Positions 3,638-49,540 of a stretch of 64,000 bases of DNA are shown here, one piece after another. The first letter of the stretch is position 1, and each line of letters opens with the position of its first letter. Where the stretch lies: the NCBI GenBank assembly GCA_022844165.1, contig JALHMH010000007.1, positions 64,001 through 128,000 on the forward strand. Direction: 5' to 3'. The notes below the pieces were generated by a model. The model was not told where the DNA came from, ran no database searches, and saw nothing but the letters and a program-made list of their open reading frames with translations. The translations under genes were made by a program, and so were the position numbers. Origin of the DNA: Lysobacterales bacterium. GTDB lineage: Bacteria > Pseudomonadota > Gammaproteobacteria > Xanthomonadales > SZUA-5.

Positions 3638-4810
3638 CTACCACACGCTACAGGCAAAACCCTTCAGGTATCGCGTTTCGGGCATCGCCGGGTGTTCAGG
3701 ATGATCGCTCGATTGCGCCAGGCGCATCAGCACGCGCAAAGAACGACCCGCGCTTTGTGCGGCACGCCGCAATGCATCGAGCAAACTGATCTCGTCGAAA
3801 TGGTGCGAGCAGGAACAGCTGATCAACCAGCCGCCGGGTTCGAGCAAACGTAGTGCCGCTTCGTTGATCCGCCGGTAAGCGAGCGCACCTTCTTCGGCGT
3901 CCTTCTTGCGCTTGATGAAGGCTGGTGGATCGACGACGATGGCACCGAAACGTTCACCGCCAGCCTTGAATTCCCGGCAGGCATCGAACGCGTCGGCCTC
4001 AATCGCGCGAACGTTGGCCGACACGCCGCTGTAGCGCGCGTTCGCGTTGACCGACTCGATCGCGGCGTTGGAAGAATCGACACACCAAACGTCCCGTGCG
4101 CCGGCACACGCAGCGCCAATGCCCCAACCGCCACCGTAAGAAAACAGATCGAGCACGCGCAAACCGGAGAGATGCGGCAAGACGCGCGCACGGTTGTCGC
4201 GCTGATCGTAGAACCAGCCGGTTTTTTGTCCAATGGCTGGTGCGATGGCGAAGCGCGCGTTGCCTTCGTCGATGATGATCTGTTCCGGTAACACGCCTTC
4301 GATCTCCACCGTCGATGGCAGGCCTTCGAGCGTGCGCGAACTGCTGTCGCCGCGCCAGACAATCGTCTCGATGCCATCGATTGAACCCAGCGCACGCGCC
4401 AACGACGGGCGCAGCCGCTCCATGCCGGCGGTCGTGATCTGCACACTGAGCACAGCACCATAACGATCGACGACCAGCCCCGGCAGACCATCACTCTCGC
4501 CGAATACCAGACGGCATTGGCGGGCGAGCCCGAGCATCCGGCGCGTCGCAACGGCGGCGTGCAAACGCTGCGCAAGCCAGGTATCAACGTCGAACTGCGC
4601 AGTGGGTGCTTGCAGCAGACGTGCGGCGATCAGCGAGTTCGGATTGACATAGGCAACGCCGAGACTCTTGCCTGGGATCTCGATGTCGACAAGTTCTCCT
4701 GGCGTCAAACCCAGCGTTCCAAGCTTGCCTTCAATCTCGTTGGCGTAAATCCACAGGTGTCCTGTGCGCAGGCGGCGCTCCGCTTCGCGCCGCAACTTGA
4801 GCGTGCGCAC
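3638..4810 (-). CDS. rlmI: Class I SAM-dependent rRNA methyltransferase, RlmI-like (23S m5C1962)
   Basis: PUA-like N-terminus GHLWIY, ESDGLPGLVVDRY, GQKTGWFYDQRDNR, VLDLFSYGGG, DPPAF; GTG start at 4810 just after the prpC stop. Confidence 0.82.
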   Translation of the reverse strand: MRTLKLRREAERRLRTGHLWIYANEIEGKLGTLGLTPGELVDIEIPGKSLGVAYVNPNSLIAARLLQAPTAQFDVDTWLAQRLHAAVATRRMLGLARQCRLVFGESDGLPGLVVDRYGAVLSVQITTAGMERLRPSLARALGSIDGIETIVWRGDSSSRTLEGLPSTVEIEGVLPEQIIIDEGNARFAIAPAIGQKTGWFYDQRDNRARVLPHLSGLRVLDLFSYGGGWGIGAACAGARDVWCVDSSNAAIESVNANARYSGVSANVRAIEADAFDACREFKAGGERFGAIVVDPPAFIKRKKDAEEGALAYRRINEAALRLLEPGGWLISCSCSHHFDEISLLDALRRAAQSAGRSLRVLMRLAQSSDHPEHPAMPETRYLKGFACSVW

Positions 4811-26466: not shown

Positions 26467-26859
26467 ATGGCTTCGACGCAACATTACGGCACCGGCCGCC
26501 GCAAATCTTCCGCCGCGCGCGTGTTTCTGCGCCCAGGCAAAGGCCAGATCACAGTGAACGAGAAGTCGCTTGACCAGTTTTTTGGTCGTGAGACGGCACG
26601 AATGGTGGTGCGTCAGCCCCTGGAGCTGACCAATCTCGCCGAGCGATTCGACATCCTGGTGACCGTTGCTGGCGGCGGCATGACCGGTCAGGCTGGCGCC
26701 ATTCGCTTAGGCATCTCCCGGGCGCTCGTCGAATACGATGAGAATCTGAAAAGCGATCTGCGCAAAGCTGGCTTCCTGACGCGTGACGCCCGCGAAGTTG
26801 AGCGCAAGAAAGTCGGTTTGCACAAAGCCCGTCGCGCGACCCAATACAGCAAGCGCTAA
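26467..26859 (+). CDS. rpsI: 30S ribosomal protein S9
   Basis: [42 protein letters not shown]. Confidence 0.98.
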
Positions 26860-26910
26860 TCGCACTTGCCCGATCCACCCGTGTCGCCCGCGGGTGCATC
26901 GCAGCGACAT

Positions 26911-26984
26911 TGGGGGATCGTTCAACGGTAGGACAACGGACTCTGACTCCGTTTATCTAGGTTCGAATCCTAGTCCCCCAGCCA
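26911..26984 (+). tRNA. tRNA-Gln (anticodon CTG)
   Basis: Cloverleaf: acceptor TGGGGGA/TCCCCCA, D arm GTTC/GGAC, anticodon arm ACGGA-CTCTGAC-TCCGT, T arm CTAGG-TTCGAAT-CCTAG, encoded CCA. Confidence 0.97.
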
Positions 26985-27607
26985 AAAACATGGCCGCCGC
27001 AAGGCGGCCATCTTTTTTGGCTGGGGGACTGGGTGAGAACCTATGAGGTTCGACTCGGAGCGCAGGATGCGCGGAGAGCGCGAGCGAAGCGAGGCCAAAG
27101 GCCGCGGGCCATGGATGGCCCGCGCAATCCTGGTCCGCCAGCCAAAAACATGGCCGCCGCAAGGCGGCCATCTTTTTTGGCTGGGGGACTGGGTGAGAAC
27201 CTATCAGGTTCGACTCGGAGTGCGGGATGCGCGGAGAGCGCGAGCGAAGGCGAGGCCAAAGGCCGCGGGCCATGGATGGCCCGCGCAATCCTAGTCCCCC
27301 AGCCAAAAACATGGCCGCCGCAAGGCGGCCATCTTTTTTGGCTGGGGGACTGGGTGAGAACCTATCAGGTTCGACTCGGAGCGCAGGATGCGCGGAGAGC
27401 GCGAGCGAAGGCGAGGCCAAAGGCCGCGGGCCATGGATGGCCCGCGCAATCCTGGTCCCCCGGCCAAAACATGCCGCCGCAAGGCGGCCATGGATGGCCC
27501 GCGCAATCCTGGTCCCCCAGCCAAAAACATGGCCGCCGCAAGGCGGCCATCGACGGCACAGCGCGCGCCCTGATGCGCTGCCTCGCCCCAGCCAAAAACA
27601 TGGCCGC
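26966..27607 (+). repeat. tRNA-linked tandem repeat array: 3 full ~160-bp units plus 3 truncated units, each starting with the tRNA-Gln 3' end
   Basis: Units start at 26966, 27126, 27287, 27448, 27505 with AATCCT(A/G)GTCCCCCAGCCA-like sequence; partial copy at ~27586-27607. Confidence 0.95.
26990..27018 (+). terminator. Intrinsic terminator, probably bidirectional, after tRNA-Gln
   Basis: ATGGCCGCC-GCAA-GGCGGCCAT followed by CTTTTTT and preceded by AAAAA; repeated in each array unit. Confidence 0.8.
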
Positions 27608-27613
27608 AACTGA

Positions 27614-30600
27614 TCAGGGTTCCGTTCGTCGCCGCGGATCCAGGCCCTCTGCATCGATCACGCGATTCTCGCGAAGCAGGTCGTAGATCAGATCGGTGAG
27701 TGCGGCCATGGCCTGTCTATCGGATTTGAGCATTAGTGTCGCCAGCTTTTGGTGTGATGTCAGCGCGCGCACCACGCCCTGTTGCACGGCGCCGGGCAGG
27801 TTGCCCCTGAGCGCCTGGTCTCGTGAGTTGTTCTCCACTTGAGCGACCACCACATCGTTCTCCTTGGCGATCGCCGCGATGTGGTTGACGAACATCGCCT
27901 GATCTCGTAACGGCGTAGCCTCTCCGAATAGCCGGTTAAGGCGGTTGATGATCTCCATCAGGTAGTCAGGCTGGTCATCCCGTACCTCGCCCCCTGGGCC
28001 GATTGGCTTCAATTTGGGTGGCTCAGTGCCGGACTTCTTGGCCGGTTCAGTCGACTTGATCTCGAAGCCCGTCAGTAAAATTCCATCCAGGTCGACATTG
28101 TCCGGCGTCACGCCCCTCAGCCGCTTGGTCAATAGGCGCGCGAAGGCAGTGAAGTTCTCCAGCTCCGGGTCACCAAAGTCGATAATCTGCGCAATGTACG
28201 CGTAACTTCGGCAGAAGCGCCCCAATCCGCTCTTGAACCCAAGCAGCGCGCTCAGCTGTTCGCTGTAAGCCTTACGTTGATGATCGGCCGACTTGGACGC
28301 CGCTTCATCCCCGCGCTGGCGGGCAGCCTCGTAGCTCGCCTCCCATTCGGCAACGGTGTCTGACAAAGCCTTGACCCGCTCGTTGAACTGGCGCGTGGTC
28401 CGCTCGGTCGCCGCGTACAGCGCCTTGTGCCGTGCATCTTCCTTCTTGGTCACGTCGCCGACGGTCTGAAAGCGCGCCTGCTTGAACCGTTCCAGATCCA
28501 CTGACGCATAAAGGTCGTGCGCGTCAAGTTGTTCCTTGATCTGGTAGACCACGTTCGGATCCTGCACATCCTCGATTGCGGCACCGTCATCGTATTTCGC
28601 GAACGCGCGGCGAACGCTGACCGGATCGTTGATGAAGTCCACTACGAAGGTGTCGTCTTTGCCCGGCGCCGTGCGGTTCAGGCGCGACAGGGTCTGCACA
28701 ATCTCGACGTCGTTGGCGATCTTTTTGTCCAGGTACATGGCGACCAGCTTGGGCTGATCGAAGCCGGTCTGAAACTTGTCGGCGACCAGCATCACCCGGT
28801 ACTCCGGTCGCTCGAAGGTGGCCGCCAGGTCATGACTGTCGGCACCCGGATTCATGCTGGCCTCGGTGAACTCTGCCTTGTCGTCAACCACGAAGGTGTC
28901 GCCAGCGATGCGCTGATCGGCGGCGTGCGTGATCTGCTTGCCGGTCAGCTTGCCGGAAAAGGCCACCAGTGAGCGGATGCCGGCGTATTGCGGATGGCGC
29001 TCGATGTAGCGATCGAAACCGATCTTGTAGCGCACCGCGGCCGCGCGTGAACTGGTTATCACCATCGCCTTGGCCTTGCCGTCCAGGCGATTGCTGACGT
29101 TGCGGCTGAAGTGCTCGATGATGAATTGCACCTTCTGGGTGACATTGGTCGGGTGCAAGCTCATCCACTGCGCCAGCGCCCGCTTGGCTTGTCGTCCGCT
29201 GACGCGCTTGGCGTCCTCGACCTGCTTCGCCAGATTGAAAGCCGTCTGGTACGGCGTGTAGCCGCGCAGCACGTCCAGGATGAAACCCTCATCGATCGCC
29301 TGCCGCATCGGGTACTTGTGGAAAGCAACCGGTGGGTGTTCCTTGCTGCGTTTGTGGCCGTCCACAGGGCGCCCGAACAGCATGTACGTCGAGTGCTTGG
29401 GCGTCGCGGTGAAGGCAAAGTGGCTTAGATTCTTCGGTCGTAGTCGCGATTGCTGCAGCTTTTCCAGCAGTTCCTCGATGGTCAGTCCGGCGATTCCCCC
29501 TTCGCCGCCCAACGCCAGCGCGGCTTGCAGCTTGGTGGCGCTGGTGCCCGTCTGCGAAGCATGCGCTTCGTCGATGATCACCGCGAAATTGCGGTTCTTC
29601 AGGCCGTGCTCGGTGACGATGGCCTCCATCGCATACGGGAAGGTCTGGATGGTGACCACGATGATCGGCGTGCCCGCCAGCAAAGCCTCAGCCAGTTGCT
29701 TGCTCTTGGATTGAGAGGACTTCTGGCGGTCAATCGCCGCGATCACGCCGAAGCGGTGGTCGATCTGTTTGACTGCGTCCTGCAACTGGCCGTCGAGTAC
29801 CGTGCGGTCGGTCACGATGACTACGCTGTTAAAGATGGCCTCGCCATCGTCGCGGCGCAGCTTGATCAGATCGTGCGCAGTCCAGGCGATGGTGCTGGTC
29901 TTGCCGGAGCCGGCGCTGTGTTCGCACAGGTACTGCATGCCGGGGCCGTTGGCCTTGGCATCGGCTACCATCGCGTTCACGGCCGACCATTGGTGGAATC
30001 GCGGGAAGATCAGCGTCTCGCGACGGGACCAGTTGCCTTTCAGGTCCACCACGTCCTTCTTCTCGGTGTAGACAAAGCTGTGAAAGATGCGCAGCCAGGC
30101 GTCGCGCTGGCAGATGTCTTCCCAGAAGTAGGCCACCGGGTACTCGCCATCCTCGCGCGGCGGATTGCCGGCCCGACCCTTGTGGCCACGGTTGAAGGGT
30201 AGGAACAAGGTGTTGTCGCCATCCAGCTTGGTGGTCATCCGGATATCGGAGTCCGACATCGCAAAGTGGACACGGCGCCGCGCTTGAAGGTCAGCAGGGG
30301 CTCGCGCCGACGCGTCTTGGCATCGACTGGCAGTCGGTCGGACTTATACTGGGCCATCGCCGCATCGGCGGACCGTGTGAAATCGGTCTTGAGCTCGACC
30401 GTGGCCACCGGAATGCCGTTGATGAAAAACACCAGGTCGATGGCCAGCGTGCGCGACGGGTGGTACTGCAATTGCGGCACCACGCGCAGCCGGTTCGCCG
30501 CGTAGCTCTCTTTGACCTTGGCGTTGCGCTGGTCTTCGGGCACAGCCTCAGACATCTCGATATGTCCGCAACCCGCCAGCGAGAATCCGCGCCGCAGCAG

Positions 30601-30864
30601 GTGGATGGTGCCGTCCTTGTCCAGTGCCTGTGCCAGTCGCTCCAGCAGCGTCTCGCGCGCAAGCGCCGGGTCGCCATGGTTCGCCTTCAGCAGGCGCTGC
30701 CAGCGCTCCTTCTGACTGTCCTGCAGCCAGCCCAGCACATCCTCGGGGTAAAGCGCGCGCTCGGTGTCGTAGTCCTGCGTGGTACCCACCAGCCAGCCCT
30801 GATCGCGCAGGCGCGCCAGCACATAGGCTTCGAAGTGCCTTTCCCGGTGATCTCGGTCATTCAT
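27614..30864 (-). pseudogene. hsdR: Type I restriction endonuclease subunit R, split by a 1-nt frameshift near 30271 (ORFs 30235..30864 and 27614..30259)
   Basis: N part has DLVFFINGIPVATVELK; C part has HSAGSGKT, DEAH, FTATPK, KFQTGFDQP, QTLSRLNR; adding one G gives KRGAVVHFAMSDSDI. Confidence 0.88.
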
Positions 30865-30998
30865 TGGGGTGCCTCGTTGGACCTGTCATCTGCGTGACGC
30901 GCCACAAAGAATCGCTCATACCACTCGCCAAGGCGCTTACCGGCCTGGCGGATCAATCCCGCGAGTGCGGCGTCGTCTACGGCGCAGAAGGTGTTCAC
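30861..30998 (-). CDS. 45-aa mini-ORF coupled to both neighbours, probable gene remnant
   Basis: GTG overlaps the GIY-YIG stop (GTGA) and its TGA overlaps the hsdR ATG (ATGA): MNTFCAVDDAALAGLIRQAGKRLGEWYERFFVARHADDRSNEAPQ. Confidence 0.55.
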   Translation of the reverse strand: MNTFCAVDDAALAGLIRQAGKRLGEWYERFFVARHADDRSNEAPQ

Positions 30999-31903
30999 AA
31001 TGCGTCTCCCGCTGCCTTCGCGAGTTGGTCAGCTTCCCAGTCCTTGTAGGTCTTCGGGGAATTCTTCAGTCGCCAGTCCAACGTCCCGTTGGCCGGGCGA
31101 CCCTTCACCGCTGCGGCGGCTGCGCTCGGGCTCTTGAATGCATAGTTGGTGGTGAACACGCAGTGCGTCGTTCGTGGTTCCAGAACTCCCATGCGGAGCA
31201 GTTCGGCATGCGGTTTGGCGTAAGCGTGGTCAGCAGGCCCGGTCCACGCAAGGCGCGCTTGCGAGCCGGCCTGCACGATGAACTCGCCACCCTCAAGAAT
31301 GGCCGCAGCGGCGATTCCGTACTTGCGATCGCTCAGCTCGAACTCGGGACTGCCGCTGGCCGCCGACACGTGAAGTGCTGGCGTGTTGGGTCGCTTGTTG
31401 CTGATGAAGAGATCAATCCGAAGCGCAGGAAGCACCATCAGCACGTTTTCGAGAAAGGCCTCCATGTTGGCCTGCGCAGCTTCGCTTAAGCCAGGGCGCG
31501 CAGGCGTGTTGCCGTTCTCCAGCGGCACGCGCCCCACGGCGCGCGCCTCCTCGACCAGACGTGCTTCCAGGTAGCGCACATGCGCCTTGTTGAGGACGTT
31601 CGCGGCCGAAGTGACCAGTACCGCGGCAGTCCACCAGTCCTTCTGCCCGTCGTGGTTGCGCATGCGGGCACTGATGTCCTCGGCCTCGCCGATGTAGGCG
31701 AGAGGAAGACCGTCGCGCTCACCGATCAGCAGATAGACGCCGGTGTAGCGCGCCTCCTTCCGAGCCAGCGCGTCGCTGATCTGCGTGCGCGGCACCATGA
31801 GCAGGTGACCGGTCCAATTGAAGACCTCGGCGGTCAGCATGCCATCCGGGCGACCGTCGATGAAATACAGCTCCAGCGAGCGACCTTTGGTCTGATGGCT
31901 CAT
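30995..31903 (-). CDS. GIY-YIG nuclease family protein with C-terminal DUF4357/RAMA-like domain
   Basis: GVYLLIG...AYIGEAE, LNKAHVRYLE, C-terminal FKSPSAAAAAVKGRPANGTLDW. Confidence 0.85.
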   Translation of the reverse strand: MSHQTKGRSLELYFIDGRPDGMLTAEVFNWTGHLLMVPRTQISDALARKEARYTGVYLLIGERDGLPLAYIGEAEDISARMRNHDGQKDWWTAAVLVTSAANVLNKAHVRYLEARLVEEARAVGRVPLENGNTPARPGLSEAAQANMEAFLENVLMVLPALRIDLFISNKRPNTPALHVSAASGSPEFELSDRKYGIAAAAILEGGEFIVQAGSQARLAWTGPADHAYAKPHAELLRMGVLEPRTTHCVFTTNYAFKSPSAAAAAVKGRPANGTLDWRLKNSPKTYKDWEADQLAKAAGDAL

Positions 31904-33139
31904 GCGACCTCCCGCAGATCGATCTGGCCGGTGACGGCGGCGGTGATCAGGGCGGAGCGGCGTTCTGACCGCAGTATTAGGCTGCGCTCGGTGGCCGCCA
32001 TGATTGCGTCGAATCGCTTCGTGCTCAGTGCAATGTGCTCAAGTATTTGGCGCTGCTCGGCAAGCGGCGGCAGGCACAGCCGGAGATCGCGGAATTCGTC
32101 CCAGTAGAGGCGCATGCGGAAGTCCGCGATTCCGCGCGAATGGCGTCGCATCTCCTCGATGGCCATGGGCGTCCGCAGCAGGTGCTCGATGTAGGCAGTT
32201 TCAACAGGCACCATCGGAGAGGCGACGACGTAGGCAGGACTGACGAGTCCGTGGACAGATACGGCGCCGACCGCGCCCTGCCAGGCGAGCATCATGTTGT
32301 ACGCGATGTCGCCGGGCTCGACGCGCTTGTACTTGGTGCGGTCCTCGCTAAGCCAGACGCGCCTATCACGGTCATCCTGATCCATTTCCTCATCGCTGAT
32401 GCCGTCGTGGATCGAGATTGACAGCACTGGCAAGGAGGCATCGCCGGTACGAATCGCTTCCCGATAGACATGGGCGACGCGCCTGACTTCCCAATGTTTG
32501 GGGATTGACTCTATCCAGTTGACGCCGGAGTCCTTCATCGACGCATCCGCATCGAGACCCTTGGTGACCGCGTGCGTGATCAGCGCCTGGCGCTTTTCCT
32601 TCAGCAGTTCGATGAAGCGTGCCTTTTTGGCGATCAGCGCGTCGATACGGGCGGTCTCGCGGTCAAGAGCGCCGGCAATCTCGCGTTGCTCCACTCGGGA
32701 CGGTGCCGCTATCGGATTCGATGCCAAGGCCTCCTGCGTCATGGATGGGAGCGCAGTGTTGGTTGAGTAGAGACCGAACGGGATGGCTGACGCCGAATAA
32801 AACAGGAAGCGCGCATCGGCATTGGCGTTGATCTGCGTGTAGAACATTGTGTCCACAGTCCAAAATCGGCCGTTGACGTACACAGGTCGGTCAATGGTGC
32901 CCTTCCGACCCAGCAGAACCGATTCGCCTTCGAATAGGTAGCTGTCGGCACGGGCGAACTCGCCACCGGAGCCGAACACCGGATACTCACCCTCTGGGTT
33001 CTCAACCAGTTTGTGATCGCGGCCATTGCAGATCGTGGCCAGGCGCTTCATGGCACATACAGCCCAATGGCGAGGGACGACGCCGAGCCACTCAACCCCG
33101 GATTCTTTGTGCGCCGGGATACTGTTTGTAGCGACTCAT
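31900..33139 (-). pseudogene. hsdS: Type I R-M specificity subunit S with a 1-nt insertion near 33116-33118; downstream ORF 31900..33051 is intact
   Basis: Two TRDs with conserved repeats (PSRVEQREI..LKEKRQALITHAVTKG; PPLAEQ..RSALITAAVTG). Removing one base gives [25 protein letters not shown], matching the internal repeat MKDSGVNWIESIPKHW. Confidence 0.88.
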
Positions 33140-34056
33140 GCGCCAGCCCCTGAGTTTGCGGGGTCGGCCCACAACGGAGGCGCCTTCCAATTCGTCGGGA
33201 AGCCCATTGCTGCGGTGTCGACTTCATACCCATCGATCAACGCGATCAACCGCTGCCGCCAACGGTGCGCAGGTGCGATCACGTCCATCAGGTACAACAA
33301 CATCAGCAGCGTGTTGTAGAGCTTGTGCGAGTCCGGCACAAACTGCCCACGGAGCACCGCGGGTTTGCTGCGAGGCGCCTGCGGTCGCACAGTGAAATCG
33401 CGATTCCAGAAGCGCGCGTGGTGGGCGCAGGTGTTACGCACCACGGTCAGATGGTGCAGCCAGGACTGCAGGACCGCCTCGTCCACGCCGTAGGGTGCAG
33501 CGATGCGGCGGCGCGTCGGCATCGGCTGCAGATTGCTGTACCAGTGCGACAACAATCCCAGTGACATCACCTCACAGACGGCCCAGACCGGCGGCAACGG
33601 CTCCTGGTAGGTATCGCGCAAATGGCGAATGAAGGTCTCGTCGGACCGCGTCACTTCGTCCGTCAGCTGCGCCAGTTGGCGCTGATGCCAGTCGTCCCGA
33701 TAAGCGATGCTGCGGTCCAGATGCGCGTGACTGCCATGGCAATGCGCCAACTGGTAGGCCCACTGTGTACGCACCGACACTTCGATGCGTTCGATGGCAT
33801 CCATCACCAGAAGACGCAGTTCGCGATCGAAGATGTAGAGATTCAGCACATCCTCAAAGCGCGTGCCCGGTTTGAAGGTGTGCGTGGCGTGATCCGCCTC
33901 GAAGGGCAGCCAGTAGGCGCAGAGCCGGTAGTAATTCAGGTGCCGGAGGTAGAACTCGGCTTGCGCGGGATCGGCGATCAGCATGCCGCGGCTCTGCAGC
34001 AGGGCGACCTGCGCGGTCAGCGTGAGCGCTGGCTTGGTGAAGGGCAGCTTGCTCAT
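33136..34056 (-). CDS. Abi family protein (Abi_2, AbiD/AbiF-like HEPN RNase)
   Basis: [32 protein letters not shown]...[23 protein letters not shown] RxxxxH motif RNTCAHH, MGFP..W. Confidence 0.9.
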
Positions 34057-34098
34057 GGGCGTTGCCCACGGCCGCCAGGGCGCGCGAATGCGGACCCC

Positions 34099-34162
34099 AG
34101 AAAAGAGAAACCCGCCGGTTTGAGGGTGCCCTTGCGGGTAGAGCCTTGGCGGGTATTGTTGC
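34099..34162 (-). ncRNA. Structured leader or antitoxin RNA candidate upstream of the Abi gene (abiF-motif-like)
   Basis: Minus-strand stem ACCCGCC/GGCGGGT enclosing CCC-GCAA-GGG, followed by UUUCUCUUUU; directly downstream of a promoter. Confidence 0.6.
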
Positions 34163-34167
34163 CCGCA

Positions 34168-34196
34168 AGTCTAGCCGGGACTGCCTGGACCGACAA
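34168..34196 (-). promoter_or_regulatory. Internal sigma70 promoter for the Abi leader
   Basis: TTGTCG-N17-TAGACT on the minus strand. Confidence 0.65.
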
Positions 34197-34237
34197 GCCG
34201 CCGGCGCGCGCTGATGCGTTGCCCATGCGGCCACGGT

Positions 34238-36256
34238 TCATTGGGTCACCTCGCCCAACAGCGCCGCGATCTCGGCTTCCACGGCCTTGAGTTCGGCATC
34301 GATCTCCGCCAGCGGACGCGGCGGCTGGTATTTGTAGAAGTAGCGGTTGAAATTGATTTCAAAGCCCACACGGCCAGGCTCGCCATCCTTGTCGTCGCAA
34401 AAGCTCGCATCGATCCAGGCATCGGGCACGTGCGGCAGCACCTCGCGCGCCAGATAGTCCTGCGGCAGCTCGCCGAGCGGCACGTTCTCGTAGTCGGTCA
34501 GTTCTGGATCGGCCATCACCGTGCCGTCGGCCGCACGGACCACCTCTCCCGCCGGATCGCGCACGCCCAGCGCGTTGATCAGTGCCTTGACGAAGGACTT
34601 GCCGACCTTGCCGATGATCGGGTTGCGCTCGGCCGTCAGCGCGGCAAAGGCTGCCGCCCACTCGAAGGCGCGGATACAGTCGTGATGCGCAGTCAGCGCC
34701 GCTTCCCACGCCGCGCGCTGCTCGTCGGTCAGCGCTAACCAGGCCTTTTCCTCACGCAGTTTCGCCAGCGTTGCGTCACTGACCTGCAGGGTCATGCGCA
34801 GAGGCCGCAGGACCTTGATGCGGCGATAACCGAAGCGGCGGTAGTCGAGCATCCGGCTGAGTTCGTGGTCACCGCCCTCGGCGTAGATGCCAGCAATTTG
34901 AGTGATCTGGTCCTCGCTGACACGCCGCCGCTTGTTGCCCTCATTGCGCATCGGGGACCAAAGGCTGGTGGCGTTGATCAGCTGTACGTGGTTCCGCCGG
35001 TTGCCGGGCTTCTTGTTGGACAAAATCCACAAATAGGTGCCGATACCGGTGCGGAAGAAGATCTCGGTGGGCAGCGCGATGATGGCGTCGACCAGATCCT
35101 GCTCCAGCAGCCACCGGCGGATCTCGGATTCGCCGGAACCGGCGCCACCGTTGAACAGCGGCGAGCCCGACAGCACGATCGCCGCGCGACCACCTCCCTT
35201 CTCGCGTCGTTCCAGCTTGCTGGCCAGGTGCAGCAGGAACAGCATCGAGCCATCGTTAATACGCGGCAGACCGGGGCCGAAGCGGCCGTAATAGCCCTTC
35301 TCTCGATGCTCCTTGTTGACGGCCGCCGCGTCCTTTTCCCATTTCTTGCCGAAGGGCGGATTGGACAGGCAGTAGTGAAAGCGCTCGCCGGCGAACTGAT
35401 CATTGGACAGCGTGCTGCCGAGCTTGATGTTCCGGGACAGGTCGCGACCAGGGTCCGTCGGCAGCTGGCGCAGCAACATGCCGGTCAGGCACACCGCGTG
35501 CGTTTCCGGTTCCAGCTCCTGCCCGTACGGCACCAGAACGGGCGGCACACGCGTGCGATTGCCATAGTTGGCGACATGGTCCATCGCATCGGACAGAAAC
35601 CCTCCGGTGCCGCAGGTGGGGTCGTACAGCGTGCGGATCAGACCGGGGTTGGCCTCGAACAGCGCATCGTCCGGGTCCAGCAGCAGCGTGGTTGCCAGAT
35701 GCACCACGTCGCGTGGCGTCATGAAGTCCTCTGCCCCTTCGTTGACCTCGGCGCCAAAGCGTCGGATCAGGTGTTCGTACAAATTGCTCATCACCCGGTC
35801 AGGCACGACGTCGGGGTGCAGATCGATGCCGGCGAAGTTGCGGCAGATCCGGAACAGCACGTTCGCCTTGTCCAGGCGCACCAGCGTGTTTTCGATGTCG
35901 AACTGCTCGAAGATCACTCGCGCGTTGTCCGAAAACTGCACGATGTAGTCCTGCAGGTTCTGCCGCGTCTTGCCGTCACCCAGCGTGTCCAGCGTGTACT
36001 GCGAGACGTTGTAGAAGGGATAGCGCGTGATCTGGCGCAGGATCAGGTCAAGGTCGATGCCGCTGTCCTTGTACTGCGCGGTCGCTTCCCGAACCGCATC
36101 CCGCGTAGGCTCCAGCACGCATTCCAGGCGACGCAGCAGGGTGAACGGCAAGATGATCTTGCCAAAGTCCGTGTGCTTGAAATCGCCCCACAGGTCCTCG
36201 GCGTTCTTCCAGATGAAGTCCGCCAAGGACGCGCCAGTTCCGCCCGCTTGTGCCAT
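34238..36256 (-). CDS. hsdM: Type I R-M N6-adenine methyltransferase subunit M
   Basis: FIWKNAEDLWG, FMTPRDVV, motif I DPTCGTGGFL, motif IV NPPF, GFEINFNRYFY. Confidence 0.95.
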   Translation of the reverse strand: MAQAGGTGASLADFIWKNAEDLWGDFKHTDFGKIILPFTLLRRLECVLEPTRDAVREATAQYKDSGIDLDLILRQITRYPFYNVSQYTLDTLGDGKTRQNLQDYIVQFSDNARVIFEQFDIENTLVRLDKANVLFRICRNFAGIDLHPDVVPDRVMSNLYEHLIRRFGAEVNEGAEDFMTPRDVVHLATTLLLDPDDALFEANPGLIRTLYDPTCGTGGFLSDAMDHVANYGNRTRVPPVLVPYGQELEPETHAVCLTGMLLRQLPTDPGRDLSRNIKLGSTLSNDQFAGERFHYCLSNPPFGKKWEKDAAAVNKEHREKGYYGRFGPGLPRINDGSMLFLLHLASKLERREKGGGRAAIVLSGSPLFNGGAGSGESEIRRWLLEQDLVDAIIALPTEIFFRTGIGTYLWILSNKKPGNRRNHVQLINATSLWSPMRNEGNKRRRVSEDQITQIAGIYAEGGDHELSRMLDYRRFGYRRIKVLRPLRMTLQVSDATLAKLREEKAWLALTDEQRAAWEAALTAHHDCIRAFEWAAAFAALTAERNPIIGKVGKSFVKALINALGVRDPAGEVVRAADGTVMADPELTDYENVPLGELPQDYLAREVLPHVPDAWIDASFCDDKDGEPGRVGFEINFNRYFYKYQPPRPLAEIDAELKAVEAEIAALLGEVTQ

Positions 36257-36513
36257 TCCATGCCCCTGCATCGATCGCATAGGGTGAGCCTAACAGCAGA
36301 ATACTTTGAAGGCTGGCCTGGATATGGTCGCCGAGCGCGCAAACGAAGGCCGCGGGCCGTGGACCGGCGCTCACACGCCAATAGGCGAGACGACCGGCGG
36401 CTGCGCTGCCGGGCCGGAAATGCGCGAAGCGCGCGGGGTTGTGGCAAGTACGCTGCAGAGCGAAGCCAACTATGCTAGGGCGGTCTGAGGCGAAGCTTCG
36501 CTAGAGATCGGTC

Positions 36514-37404
36514 ATGCACATCCGTAAAGAGAACCTTGAGGGCGCGCAGGTTCAGGCTCTTCTTCGAGAGCATCTGGCCTCGATGGAGCACACGGCGCCG
36601 CCGGAAAGTCGCCACGCTTTGGATCTGTCGGGGTTGCGTGACCCTGCTGTCACGTTTTGGAGCATCTGGGACGGTGAGACATTGGCCGGGTTCGGCGCAC
36701 TCAAGCATCTGACCGCAGAGCACGCTGAAATCAAGTCCATGCGCACTGCGGCGCCGTATCTTCGCCGCGGAGTGGCATCGCGCATGTTAGATCATCTCAT
36801 CACTGAAGCAGCCAATCGTGGCTACACCAGAATCAGTCTTGAAACCGGTTCGATGGCATTCTTCGAACCTGCGCGCCGCCTTTACGAATCCTTCGGCTTC
36901 GTTCAGTGCCAACCATTCGCCAATTACCGACCAGACCCCAACAGCACATTCATGACGCTTGACGGGTTATCGCCCAATTCCGGCGTCACCCGGATCAACC
37001 AGAAATCTCGGAGTTCGTGTATGACCAGACAGCTCATCAGCTCGGGCTCAACATTTGAGCAGGAGATTGGCTATTCCCGTGCAGTCGTAGATGGCAACTG
37101 GATTTTTGTCTCAGGAACGACCGGCTTTGACTACTCCACCATGACGATCTCAGACAGTTTGACTGAACAGACGGAGCAATGCCTCAGGAACATTGAGGCA
37201 GCGCTGCATCAAGCCGGGTCAAGCCTCAAAGATGTGGTGCGTGTCACGTATGTCTTACCCAATGGTGCAGATTTTCCGCAATGCTGGCCGATCCTTCGCC
37301 AGTACTTCGGCGAGGTACGTCCAGCCGCAATGATGATCTCCGCGGGGTTAGCCGATCCTCGAATGCGCATTGAAATGGAGGTCACCGCACTAAAGCAGTC
37401 GTAG
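36514..37404 (+). CDS. In-frame fusion of a GNAT acetyltransferase (36514-~36970) and a RidA/YjgF-family protein (own RBS and ATG at 37021)
   Basis: EIKSMRT..LRRGVAS..LETGS..LYESFGF, then MTRQLISSGSTFEQEIGYSRAVVDG..VSGTTG..RPAAMM..IEMEVTA. Confidence 0.82.
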   Translation: MHIRKENLEGAQVQALLREHLASMEHTAPPESRHALDLSGLRDPAVTFWSIWDGETLAGFGALKHLTAEHAEIKSMRTAAPYLRRGVASRMLDHLITEAANRGYTRISLETGSMAFFEPARRLYESFGFVQCQPFANYRPDPNSTFMTLDGLSPNSGVTRINQKSRSSCMTRQLISSGSTFEQEIGYSRAVVDGNWIFVSGTTGFDYSTMTISDSLTEQTEQCLRNIEAALHQAGSSLKDVVRVTYVLPNGADFPQCWPILRQYFGEVRPAAMMISAGLADPRMRIEMEVTALKQS

Positions 37405-37419
37405 ATGCGGTCGCGCGCA

Positions 37420-37992
37420 TCAGGCTCGCGGTAGTGTCACGCCTTGCTGGCCCTGGTACTTCCCGCCGCGGTCTCGATAACTCACCTCGCAGGTTTCGTC
37501 GGACTCAAAAAACAACATTTGCGCCACGCCTTCGCCGGCATAAATTTTTGCTGGCAGCGGCGTCGTGTTCGAAAACTCGAGCGTGACGTGCCCTTCCCAC
37601 TCGGGTTCGAGCGGCGTGACGTTGACGATGATGCCGCAGCGCGCATAAGTACTCTTGCCCAGACAGATCGTCAGCACCGAGCGCGGGATGCGAAAGTACT
37701 CCACCGTGCGAGCCAGGCAAAATGAATTCGGCGGAATGATGCAAACGGGGCCCTTGAAGTCGACGAAACTGCGTTCGTCGAAAGCCTTGGGATCGACGAT
37801 GGTCGAGTTGATGTTGGTGAAAATCTTGAATTCGTCGGCACAGCGCACGTCGTAGCCGTAGCTCGACGTGCCATAGCTGATCAGTCGATCGCCATCCGGA
37901 TTACGGCGGACCTGTTCGGGCGCAAAGGGCTCGATCATCTTGCCCAAACCTTCGCTCATCCGCCGGATCCAGCGGTCACACTTGATGCTCAT
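37420..37992 (-). CDS. dcd: dCTP deaminase
   Basis: [55 protein letters not shown]. Confidence 0.96.
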
Positions 37993-49466: not shown

Positions 49467-49509
49467 GCTGCCGATCGAGCAGACCCTTTCCCGTCAGTCG
49501 CCGACACCG

Positions 49510-49540
49510 AAAAAAGAACCCCGGCCGAAGCCGGGGTTCT
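49510..49540 (-). terminator. Intrinsic terminator of the large secreted protein gene
   Basis: AGAACCCCGGC-CGAA-GCCGGGGTTCT with an A run on its left side (U tract on the minus strand). Confidence 0.85.

Follow-up and report, generated by a model that had tools for sequence, protein, structure and literature searches.

The window, a 64,000-nucleotide (nt) stretch of a Lysobacterales bacterium genome (GenBank GCA_022844165.1, contig JALHMH010000007.1, positions 64,001 to 128,000), contains a type I restriction-modification (R-M) operon in which abi, a gene for a predicted HEPN ribonuclease (RNase) toxin of the AbiF/AbiD family, lies between hsdM and hsdS. Coordinates are positions within the window, and the island is encoded throughout on the minus strand. 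Its elements follow in the order hsdM, an open reading frame (ORF) that bridges the hsdM-abi spacer and contains an RNA gene, abi, hsdS, PDC-S14, a mini-ORF, and hsdR. The methyltransferase subunit gene hsdM (34238..36280) is intact, encoding 680 amino acids (aa) with Pfam matches to N6_Mtase (1.8e-48) and HsdM_N (7.1e-20), and the spacer from its stop codon to the abi ATG spans 181 nt (34057-34237), the same bounds as in an earlier examination of the letters alone (the sequence-only reading). That reading saw an AbiF-type HEPN toxin preceded by an abiF RNA with its own promoter and terminator-like end, nested in an R-M operon, a core that is supported by the sequence and matches published relatives carrying the same kind of module (PMC12373285, PMC2661086, and the review PMC12737573). 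On the comparisons below, we consider it likely that the region is an AbiF-type toxin-antitoxin, or abortive-infection, module built into the type I R-M operon. The new element is a conserved bridging ORF over the putative antitoxin RNA gene, which is well supported as a sequence feature.

The abi gene (33136..34056) encodes a full-length protein of 306 aa that matches Pfam Abi_2 (PF07751) at 4.7e-59 (200.2 bits against a cut-off of 25.6; profile positions 2-184 of 184), the PADLOC AbiD model at 1.9e-75, and its only solved relative, 8vz6_A ("Abi family protein"), at E 4.9e-62, with residues 2-296 aligned to 3-299. The HEPN RxxxxH motif, RNTCAH (33421..33438; R207...H212), is as intact as the sequence-only reading had it: it aligns with TRNSCCH of 8vz6_A and places R207 and H212 opposite R210 and H215, which are described as the catalytic residues of PbAbiF, the double mutant being inactive (PMC12373285). 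By homology, then, abi is predicted to encode a full-length AbiF/AbiD-family HEPN RNase with the catalytic R and H in place. Abi_2 was the only family detected by Pfam in the 306-aa protein, which is without the N-terminal ABC-ATPase domain of the PrrC/RloC type. An in-frame abi start further upstream, nearer the RNA motif, was considered, and none exists. The family is large, with 4568 homologs at E ≤ 0.001 in the set of candidates scored, and the closest relatives, 79-92% identical, come from metagenome collections.

To compare the spacer across relatives, an alignment of 18 Abi proteins was used to obtain 477 genome loci, of which the best 80 (55-69% identity) were analyzed; 79 of their leaders were aligned, 65 of them distinct, and 772,079 bases were searched. 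In the window the spacer contains an abiF-type RNA motif (34110..34154), identified by Rfam RF03085, nhmmer, and covariation, and located 53 nt before the abi ATG. Its outer stem P1 (ACCCGCC/GGCGGGT; 34154-34148 and 34116-34110) encloses an internal loop with CCTCAAACC, a second stem P2 (AGG/CCT), and an inner hairpin, CCC-GCAA-GGG (34138-34129); outer stem, inner hairpin, and U-rich tail are all present as the sequence-only reading described them. The window copy retains, besides the outer stem, the near-invariant AAGGCT and CCTCAAACC loops, and it has the conserved single-stranded CUCAAAC loop. A permissive Rfam scan of the 2.5 kb from 32500 to 35000 gave a single sensible match, to abiF RF03085 on the abi strand (34110-34153; 30.6 bits, E 0.0069, model positions 1-37 of 37), and a hidden Markov model (HMM) built from the leaders and run with nhmmer likewise had a single match in the window (34154-34110, E 1.3e-9). 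Among the relatives, nhmmer placed the motif 13-65 nt upstream of the abi start in 74 of the 80 loci and found only 2 matches elsewhere in the DNA searched. Five more loci (L037, L071, L077, L079, and L080) carry diverged copies with the same structure, bringing the total to 79 of 80; the remaining locus, L065, has no motif copy upstream of abi. The motif is also present upstream of abi in all eight plasmid loci, which were outside the training set. Our covariance model scores the window copy at 78.8 bits, a value to be read with that copy having been in the training set.

The structure itself is supported by compensatory change. Over the outer stem, the 3-bp stem, and the inner hairpin of the 65 distinct leaders, 95.5% of cells are paired, and 9 of the 16 base pairs have changed on both sides; none of 500 shuffles reaches the observed value, and slid controls pair in only 20-49% of cells. 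Outer stems such as CCTCCC/GGGAGG and CCCCTC/GAGGGG, and inner stems such as GCGCG/CGCGT and GCTCT/GGAGT, illustrate the covariation. The leader had been taken from the single sequence to be a structured RNA, and that structure is conserved upstream of abi in 79 of 80 loci.

The window holds one motif, in single copy and not in tandem repeats of the ToxIN type; a candidate second copy at 49505-49539 (18.7 bits, E 0.13 with our own covariance model) was taken as noise. Among the relatives, L019 carries two abiF motifs in tandem before abi (4627-4746), like RCd22 of Clostridioides difficile, and L032 carries a second motif (1462-1523) ~2 kb upstream of abi. Two type I operons of Halomonadaceae carry additional abiF-like hairpins, accompanied by U-tracts and boxes resembling a promoter, ahead of hsdS and immediately ahead of hsdR (L072, 5998-6052 and 9780-9834; L075, 6004-6058 and 9306-9360), so the motif also occurs with genes other than abi. 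In L072, the hairpin preceding hsdR clears the Rfam abiF cut-off at 43.8 bits.

Promoter and ends of the RNA were examined in 77 distinct upstream sequences anchored on the first base of the outer stem. The putative sigma-70 promoter of the window (34168..34196) consists of a -35 box TTGTCG (34196-34191), a 17-nt spacer, and a -10 box TAGACT (34173-34168), as the sequence-only reading described it. In the relatives, a -10-like T, A, and T occur at -19, -18, and -14 in 52, 47, and 53 of the 77 sequences, and the -35 T at -41 in 53; TAGACT at -19 to -14 and TTGTCG at -42 to -37 in the window occupy exactly these box positions. The leader CAACAAT (34155..34161), CAACAAA in relatives, lies just 5′ of the stem at -7 to -1 and is strongly conserved, with A at -6 in 74 of 77, at -5 in all 77, and at -3 in 75; judging from its distance to the -10 box, it is likely the 5′ end of the RNA. 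Directly after P1 comes a terminator-like U-rich tail, TTTCTCTTTTCT (34099..34110). At least five T in an 8-nt span beginning 0-3 nt after P1 are found in 64 of 65 distinct relatives, and the window copy has six. A terminator scan lists nothing in the gap, because the stem encloses a long internal structure. The predicted RNA is thus one of ~60 nt, running from about 34160 to about 34100.

The sequence-only reading had called the spacer non-coding, which needs correcting: it is spanned by a bridging ORF of 62 codons (34053..34241) whose ATG overlaps the hsdM stop (ATGA, 34241-34238) and whose TGA overlaps the abi ATG (ATGA, 34056-34053), and which reads across the promoter, the abiF RNA, and the U-tract. 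In a set of 33 embedded loci including the window, with expectations derived from shuffled flanks around the fixed motif, the bridging frame is free of stops over the whole gap in 29 loci against 7.9 expected (Poisson-binomial P 1.8e-17, the loci being treated as independent though related). Of the 33 gaps, 28 are 1 mod 3 in length, as are 18 of the 22 distinct lengths, which range between 124 and 343 nt (P 4.2e-6); the stop before the gap is ATGA or GTGA in 29 loci, and the abi start is NTGA in 25. In a pass over 32 gaps, the bridging frame was open in 30, and the other two frames in 11 and 3. Stops summed over all segments number 6 in the bridging frame against 52 and 57 in the others, a contrast that is inflated in the promoter segment, because promoter hexamers close the other frames, and is not inflated in the unconserved segment upstream of the promoter, where the bridging frame has 1 stop against 28 and 18 (~592 codons each). 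The bridging peptides share no conserved sequence outside the part encoded by the RNA, and two loci, L013 and L041, have the motif in a different frame (QQNPPRL...). Because the peptides are unshared, the frame of the motif varies, and codon-position G+C is flat, what these alignments indicate to be conserved is openness and phase, not a protein.

The design extends beyond hsdM. Of 47 motif loci without hsdM directly upstream, 24 have an ORF covering the promoter and RNA, which in nine of them is coupled to a different preceding ORF (90 aa or longer); in 16 the frame is open but has no start codon ahead of the promoter, and seven have none. Bridging recurs after DUF4411, hsdS, GmrSD, and KwaB genes. 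In the independent plasmid locus L084, the order is hsdM, hsdS, a 166-nt gap, abi, and hsdR, and a 57-codon ATGA-to-ATGA ORF extends over a diverged motif; a second plasmid locus (L081) shows the design after DUF4411. The rest of the plasmid set (n = 8) includes four stand-alone copies without a bridging ORF and two loci (L083 and L085) with an ATGA start and an open frame and no close upstream gene. The gene tables of the plasmid loci, which are incomplete, annotate no ORF in the spacers. In the literature searched, PMC2661086 included, we found nothing on an upstream ORF or coupling in AbiF systems, which is weak evidence of absence.

Nesting in restriction operons is common. In 32 of the 80 loci, abi is preceded by hsdM and followed by hsdS, and of the 61 that are fully flanked (at least 2.5 kb upstream and at least 1.5 kb downstream), 28 have both, two have hsdM only, and 31 have neither. 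Several of the last group occupy a different place in a type I operon or lie in another defense context, the alternative arrangements comprising ImmA-DUF4411-abi-hsdR, hsdS-abi, abi-hsdM, GmrSD, KwaB, and AbiEi. An ATGA overlap between the abi stop and the hsdS start is the rule in nested relatives. The link between restriction and toxin, put forward as unusual in the sequence-only reading, is therefore a frequent one, seen in 28 of 61 fully flanked relatives, and it is not new: Abi2/AbiF/AbiD is listed as "embedded in R-M operons" in Table 1 of a 2013 paper (PMC3710099). Earlier publications thus describe both the module and such nesting.

Downstream of abi, the restriction genes are interrupted. 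hsdS (31900..33139; Pfam Methylase_S 2.2e-11) carries a +1 frameshift near 33113-33118: its ATG at 33139, which shares an ATGA with the stop of abi, begins a reading frame that ends after 15 codons, and the body (31900-33051 and beyond) lies in another frame. Relatives read MSHYKPYPKYKDSGVEW... at this place, a sequence that the window takes up again in another frame. hsdR (27614..30864) has a 1-nt deletion near 30269-30272 that divides it into pieces at 30235-30864 and 27614-30259, encoding 209 aa (HSDR_N) and 881 aa (SWI2_SNF2, ResIII, and T1R_D3, all by Pfam). L003 and L044 encode a single HsdR of 1076 aa reading ...FKRGAVVHFAMSDSD..., and the window is one base short there. The hsdM, abi, RNA, and PDC-S14 genes beside them are intact, and in a coarse Pfam check of 20 neighboring ORFs we found no adjacent pair sharing a family that suggests a split gene. 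With both hsdS and hsdR frameshifted, this genome's restriction arm looks inactive. Sequencing errors could account for the frameshifts, which counts against this, and real inactivation rather than poor sequence seems likelier to us. The proposed role of Abi as a back-up to type I restriction fits poorly with an arm that looks broken here.

Between hsdS and hsdR is a gene of the DUF4357/PDC-S14 type (30995..31903; 302 aa; Pfam DUF4357 5.4e-14; PADLOC PDC-S14 2.1e-113), with an ATGA overlap at the hsdS stop. This protein had been labeled GIY-YIG, a label that finds no support: Pfam returns only DUF4357, with no GIY-YIG match at E up to 0.01, and PADLOC returns PDC-S14. Homologs occupy the equivalent operon position in L005, L030, L058, L072, and L075. 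PDC-S14 is a second accessory defense candidate in the operon, joined by ATGA/GTGA overlaps. A mini-ORF of 45 codons (30861..30998) links PDC-S14, whose stop it overlaps in a GTGA, to hsdR, whose start it overlaps in an ATGA, and is the sole stop-free frame of the 130-nt PDC-S14/hsdR spacer; it has no family match in Pfam and PADLOC searches and resembles a second bridging ORF, with no RNA motif found inside. The chaining of these genes by 4-nt start/stop overlaps stands as described insofar as all six operon junctions are intact [AG]TGA overlaps (ATGA or GTGA), and it fails at hsdS, where the frame opened after abi is the short one noted above.

The island is flanked by rplM-rpsI and tRNA-Gln (26911-26984) on one side and by housekeeping genes on the other, and its G+C is similar to that of its flanks. 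The window hsdM shares 69-76% identity with hsdM of L003, L044, and L048. A 161-nt tandem repeat (26966-27491; 3.3 copies, 96% matches) begins inside the 3′ end of tRNA-Gln and adjoins hsdR, each unit bearing a strong terminator-like hairpin; it may be the edge of an island inserted at tRNA-Gln. Adjoining hsdM is a divergent gene (36514-37404, plus strand) encoding a GNAT acetyltransferase fused to a RidA/L-PSP endoribonuclease-family domain.

A 10-nt direct repeat, GCGTTGCCCA, had also been noted as bracketing the gap. Both copies are exact and at the positions proposed (34216..34225 and 34059..34068, plus strand), and the repeat is absent from all 32 homologous gaps. Of 5000 dinucleotide shuffles of the gap, 260 contain a direct repeat of at least 10 nt, and 8 contain one in bracketing position. 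Given this marginal excess over shuffles and the lack of conservation, the idea of an insertion scar or a target duplication was rejected, and the repeat is probably local and without function. On the RNA strand, the copy at 34059..34068 falls in a predicted hairpin that pairs the abi start codon (CGUGGGC-AAC-GCCCAUG, 34056-34076) in the fold of the 124-nt read-through leader, a fold that is not significant (z -0.63).

By extension from C. difficile AbiF/RCd22, Prevotellaceae AbiF, and Lactococcus lactis AbiD1, the internal promoter would make an abundant ~60-nt RNA ending at the U-tract, which would bind the AbiF dimer and block the RNase site; by analogy with these relatives we infer that the antitoxin RNA binds and inhibits the AbiF of the window. 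The abi mRNA would come from rare read-through, the terminator setting the ratio of RNA to toxin, and a phage that halts host transcription or disturbs the complex would cause the RNA to fall, AbiF to cleave cellular RNA, and infection to be aborted. The bridging ORF would add a second layer. Translating ribosomes suppress intragenic terminators. On transcripts from the hsdM promoter, ribosomes could translate across the RNA gene and so keep the RNA from folding into its hairpin; with termination and polarity thereby suppressed, abi, hsdS, and hsdR would be transcribed and translated in turn, whereas transcripts from the internal promoter would begin inside the bridging ORF, remain untranslated, fold, and terminate as antitoxin RNA. 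The sequence-only reading had set hsdM apart from the S and R genes by an attenuator, a separation that weakens if ribosomes from hsdM may pass via the conserved bridging ORF. We put forward tentatively, at somewhat less than even confidence, that the antitoxin-RNA gene is kept inside the bridging ORF so that one DNA gives two products, with read-through dependent on ongoing translation, a built-in sensor of phage disturbance, and a general rule for insertion into operons without polarity. The bridging ORF would suggest how a terminator-bearing RNA gene can sit in mid-operon without splitting the operon, and it would offer a simple link between translation status and toxin-antitoxin balance.

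Several results weigh against these interpretations. For the RNA, the window promoter matches the consensus at only 8 of 12 positions and is not listed by a promoter scan of 26500-37500; it is supported because its boxes sit at a conserved fixed distance from the stem. The window RNA, although matched by the full-length abiF model, misses the RF03085 gathering cut-off of 37 with its 30.6 bits, because it has 14 nt where the model expects 7, and its inner hairpin is weaker than that of relatives, with three G-C pairs and one U-A against six pairs. Folding energy is not significant against shuffles (z -0.98 for the whole gap and -0.44 for the 68-nt RNA), and the minimum-energy fold of the 68-nt piece differs from the consensus structure; energy was therefore rejected as evidence for the RNA, the window copy being no better than shuffles, and comparative evidence was used instead. 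For the bridging ORF, kinship among loci makes the P values too small, four of the 33 embedded loci lack the open frame, promoter hexamers put TGA, TAA, or TAG in the other two frames, and G+C at the three codon positions is 0.65/0.68/0.68 against about 0.64/0.44/0.80 in real genes, which is not coding-like. The prediction that a coupled abi lacks a Shine-Dalgarno sequence also failed: anti-Shine-Dalgarno pairing is stronger in bridged loci (-6.3 kcal/mol, n = 53) than in unbridged ones (-4.2 kcal/mol, n = 27), a comparison confounded by G+C, and an abi without a ribosome-binding site and dependent on coupling was rejected.

The miss of the Rfam cut-off is not peculiar to the window. When the gathering score was applied to 13 relatives, Rfam recovered the abi-proximal RNA in only one and missed it in 12. 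The window RNA is best classed as an extended-hairpin variant and not a curated RF03085 member; this long-inner-hairpin form, dominant in these proteobacterial loci, is systematically missed by the current Rfam model. As the cut-off misses the commonest proteobacterial abiF RNA, annotation will report these AbiF toxins as being without an antitoxin.

Among other explanations, we give some weight to the possibility, itself unlikely, that the whole island is a decaying remnant in which the Abi module is an addictive leftover without a defense role in this strain. The two frameshifts within ~3 kb in hsdS and hsdR, in surroundings where no split-gene pair was seen among 20 flanking ORFs, and the weakened inner hairpin of the RNA would be expected of such decay. 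Much of the module is nonetheless untouched: abi is full length with its catalytic residues, the RNA loops, promoter geometry, and U-tract are all kept, and all six ATGA/GTGA junctions are intact. The frameshifts, moreover, may be sequencing errors, and AbiF systems are described as defending on their own in other hosts (review PMC13064643).

It is also improbable, to a degree that still leaves it worth weighing, that the open frame is a by-product, with the ATGA a relic of an ancestral hsdM-hsdS junction, the promoter and motif leaving one frame free, and no use by ribosomes. Across a span of 124 to 343 nt, 18 of the 22 distinct gap lengths keep the 1 mod 3 phase; the unconserved segment before the promoter has 1 stop against 28 and 18; and the design recurs with DUF4411, hsdS, GmrSD, and KwaB upstream, none of which a relic would lead one to expect. 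What speaks for a by-product is that a coupled hsdM/hsdS overlap is described as ancestral in type I systems (PMC3510504), that promoter hexamers close the other two frames and the motif is stop-free in all frames, and that the Shine-Dalgarno test gave no support for dependence on coupling.

We regard it as quite improbable that the leader is only a cis-acting attenuator of abi, hsdS, and hsdR, a constitutive or signal-responsive terminator with no antitoxin role in trans. The P1 stem and U-tract are conserved, the terminator upstream of AbiD1 is reported to limit full-length mRNA (PMC2661086), and RCd22 is reported to cut abiF expression 17-fold at the transcription level (PMC12373285), all as an attenuator would have it; yet a plain terminator needs no conserved internal-loop sequence, and CCTCAAAC, AAGGCT, and the CAACAAA leader are nearly invariant though the proteins are only 55-69% identical. 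Related RNAs, furthermore, are described as binding and neutralizing the protein in trans (PMC12373285; PMC12737573 on 8VZ6). Finally, a functional small protein of 62 aa, for example an antitoxin or regulator, whose peptide the nucleotide conservation would reflect instead of an RNA, is very improbable: the ORF is conserved in phase and openness and the motif-coded stretch NKTRQGYARKRILKPAG recurs in most peptides, but stem positions covary to keep pairing, L013 and L041 read the motif in another frame with the RNA still conserved, sequence and length outside the motif are unconserved, codon-position G+C is flat (0.65/0.68/0.68), and stand-alone abi loci keep the RNA without the ORF.

An AbiF-type module carried inside the R-M operon, the reading we prefer, has several known counterparts. 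The type III systems ToxIN and AbiQ resemble the window in having an upstream antitoxin RNA and a terminator before the toxin; there the RNA inhibits the RNase directly, which in the window is presumed by analogy. Their tandem-repeat antitoxins are described as being processed by toxins that are not HEPN proteins (PMC12373285), whereas the hairpin of the window is single copy. The anticodon nucleases PrrC-EcoprrI and RloC (PMC3710099) share with the window an HEPN RNase gene placed among hsdM, hsdS, and hsdR and are read as a second line of defense. They are described as having an ABC-ATPase domain and being silenced by protein contact with the R-M enzyme (PMC3710099), whereas the window gene has Abi_2 only and a predicted RNA partner.

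L. lactis AbiD1 likewise has a short, terminator-ended RNA before abi: a 50-nt transcript is reported to stop at a terminator just upstream, and read-through to give a 3.6-kb operon mRNA that includes downstream genes (PMC2661086). It differs in being on a Gram-positive plasmid and in its activation at the level of translation by phage Orf1 and cold, and it has no R-M genes (PMC2661086). A further counterpart is C. difficile AbiFCd/RCd22, where promoter, abiF-motif RNA, terminator, and abi follow one another as in the window; RCd22 is described with a promoter, abiF motifs, a terminator, and read-through, and as an RNA antitoxin acting in cis and in trans (PMC12373285). It carries two motifs, with a terminator apart from them, and belongs to a prophage lysis module, whereas the window has one motif, its own outer stem and U-tract forming the terminator-like end, in an R-M operon.

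Another close characterized system is PbAbiF from a Prevotellaceae bacterium (PDB 8VZ6), a type III-like toxin-antitoxin system that has, like the window, an abiF-motif RNA directly upstream of a toxin with full-length homology and aligned catalytic R and H. The window RNA is by comparison the long-inner-hairpin variant, below the Rfam cut-off, and the module sits in a type I R-M operon and is overlapped by a bridging ORF. A complex of AbiF with its noncoding RNA and a link to Cas13 have been described (PMC12737573), and AbiD/F with RF03085 has been tied to Cas13 origins (PMC12165695); the bridging ORF, if its proposed role is true, would bear on how AbiF-like modules, proposed Cas13 ancestors, are wired into other defense systems. 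Apart from that ORF, the sequence-only reading correctly recognized a known module: it was a mostly correct rediscovery, and the window adds one more member to a well-described family.

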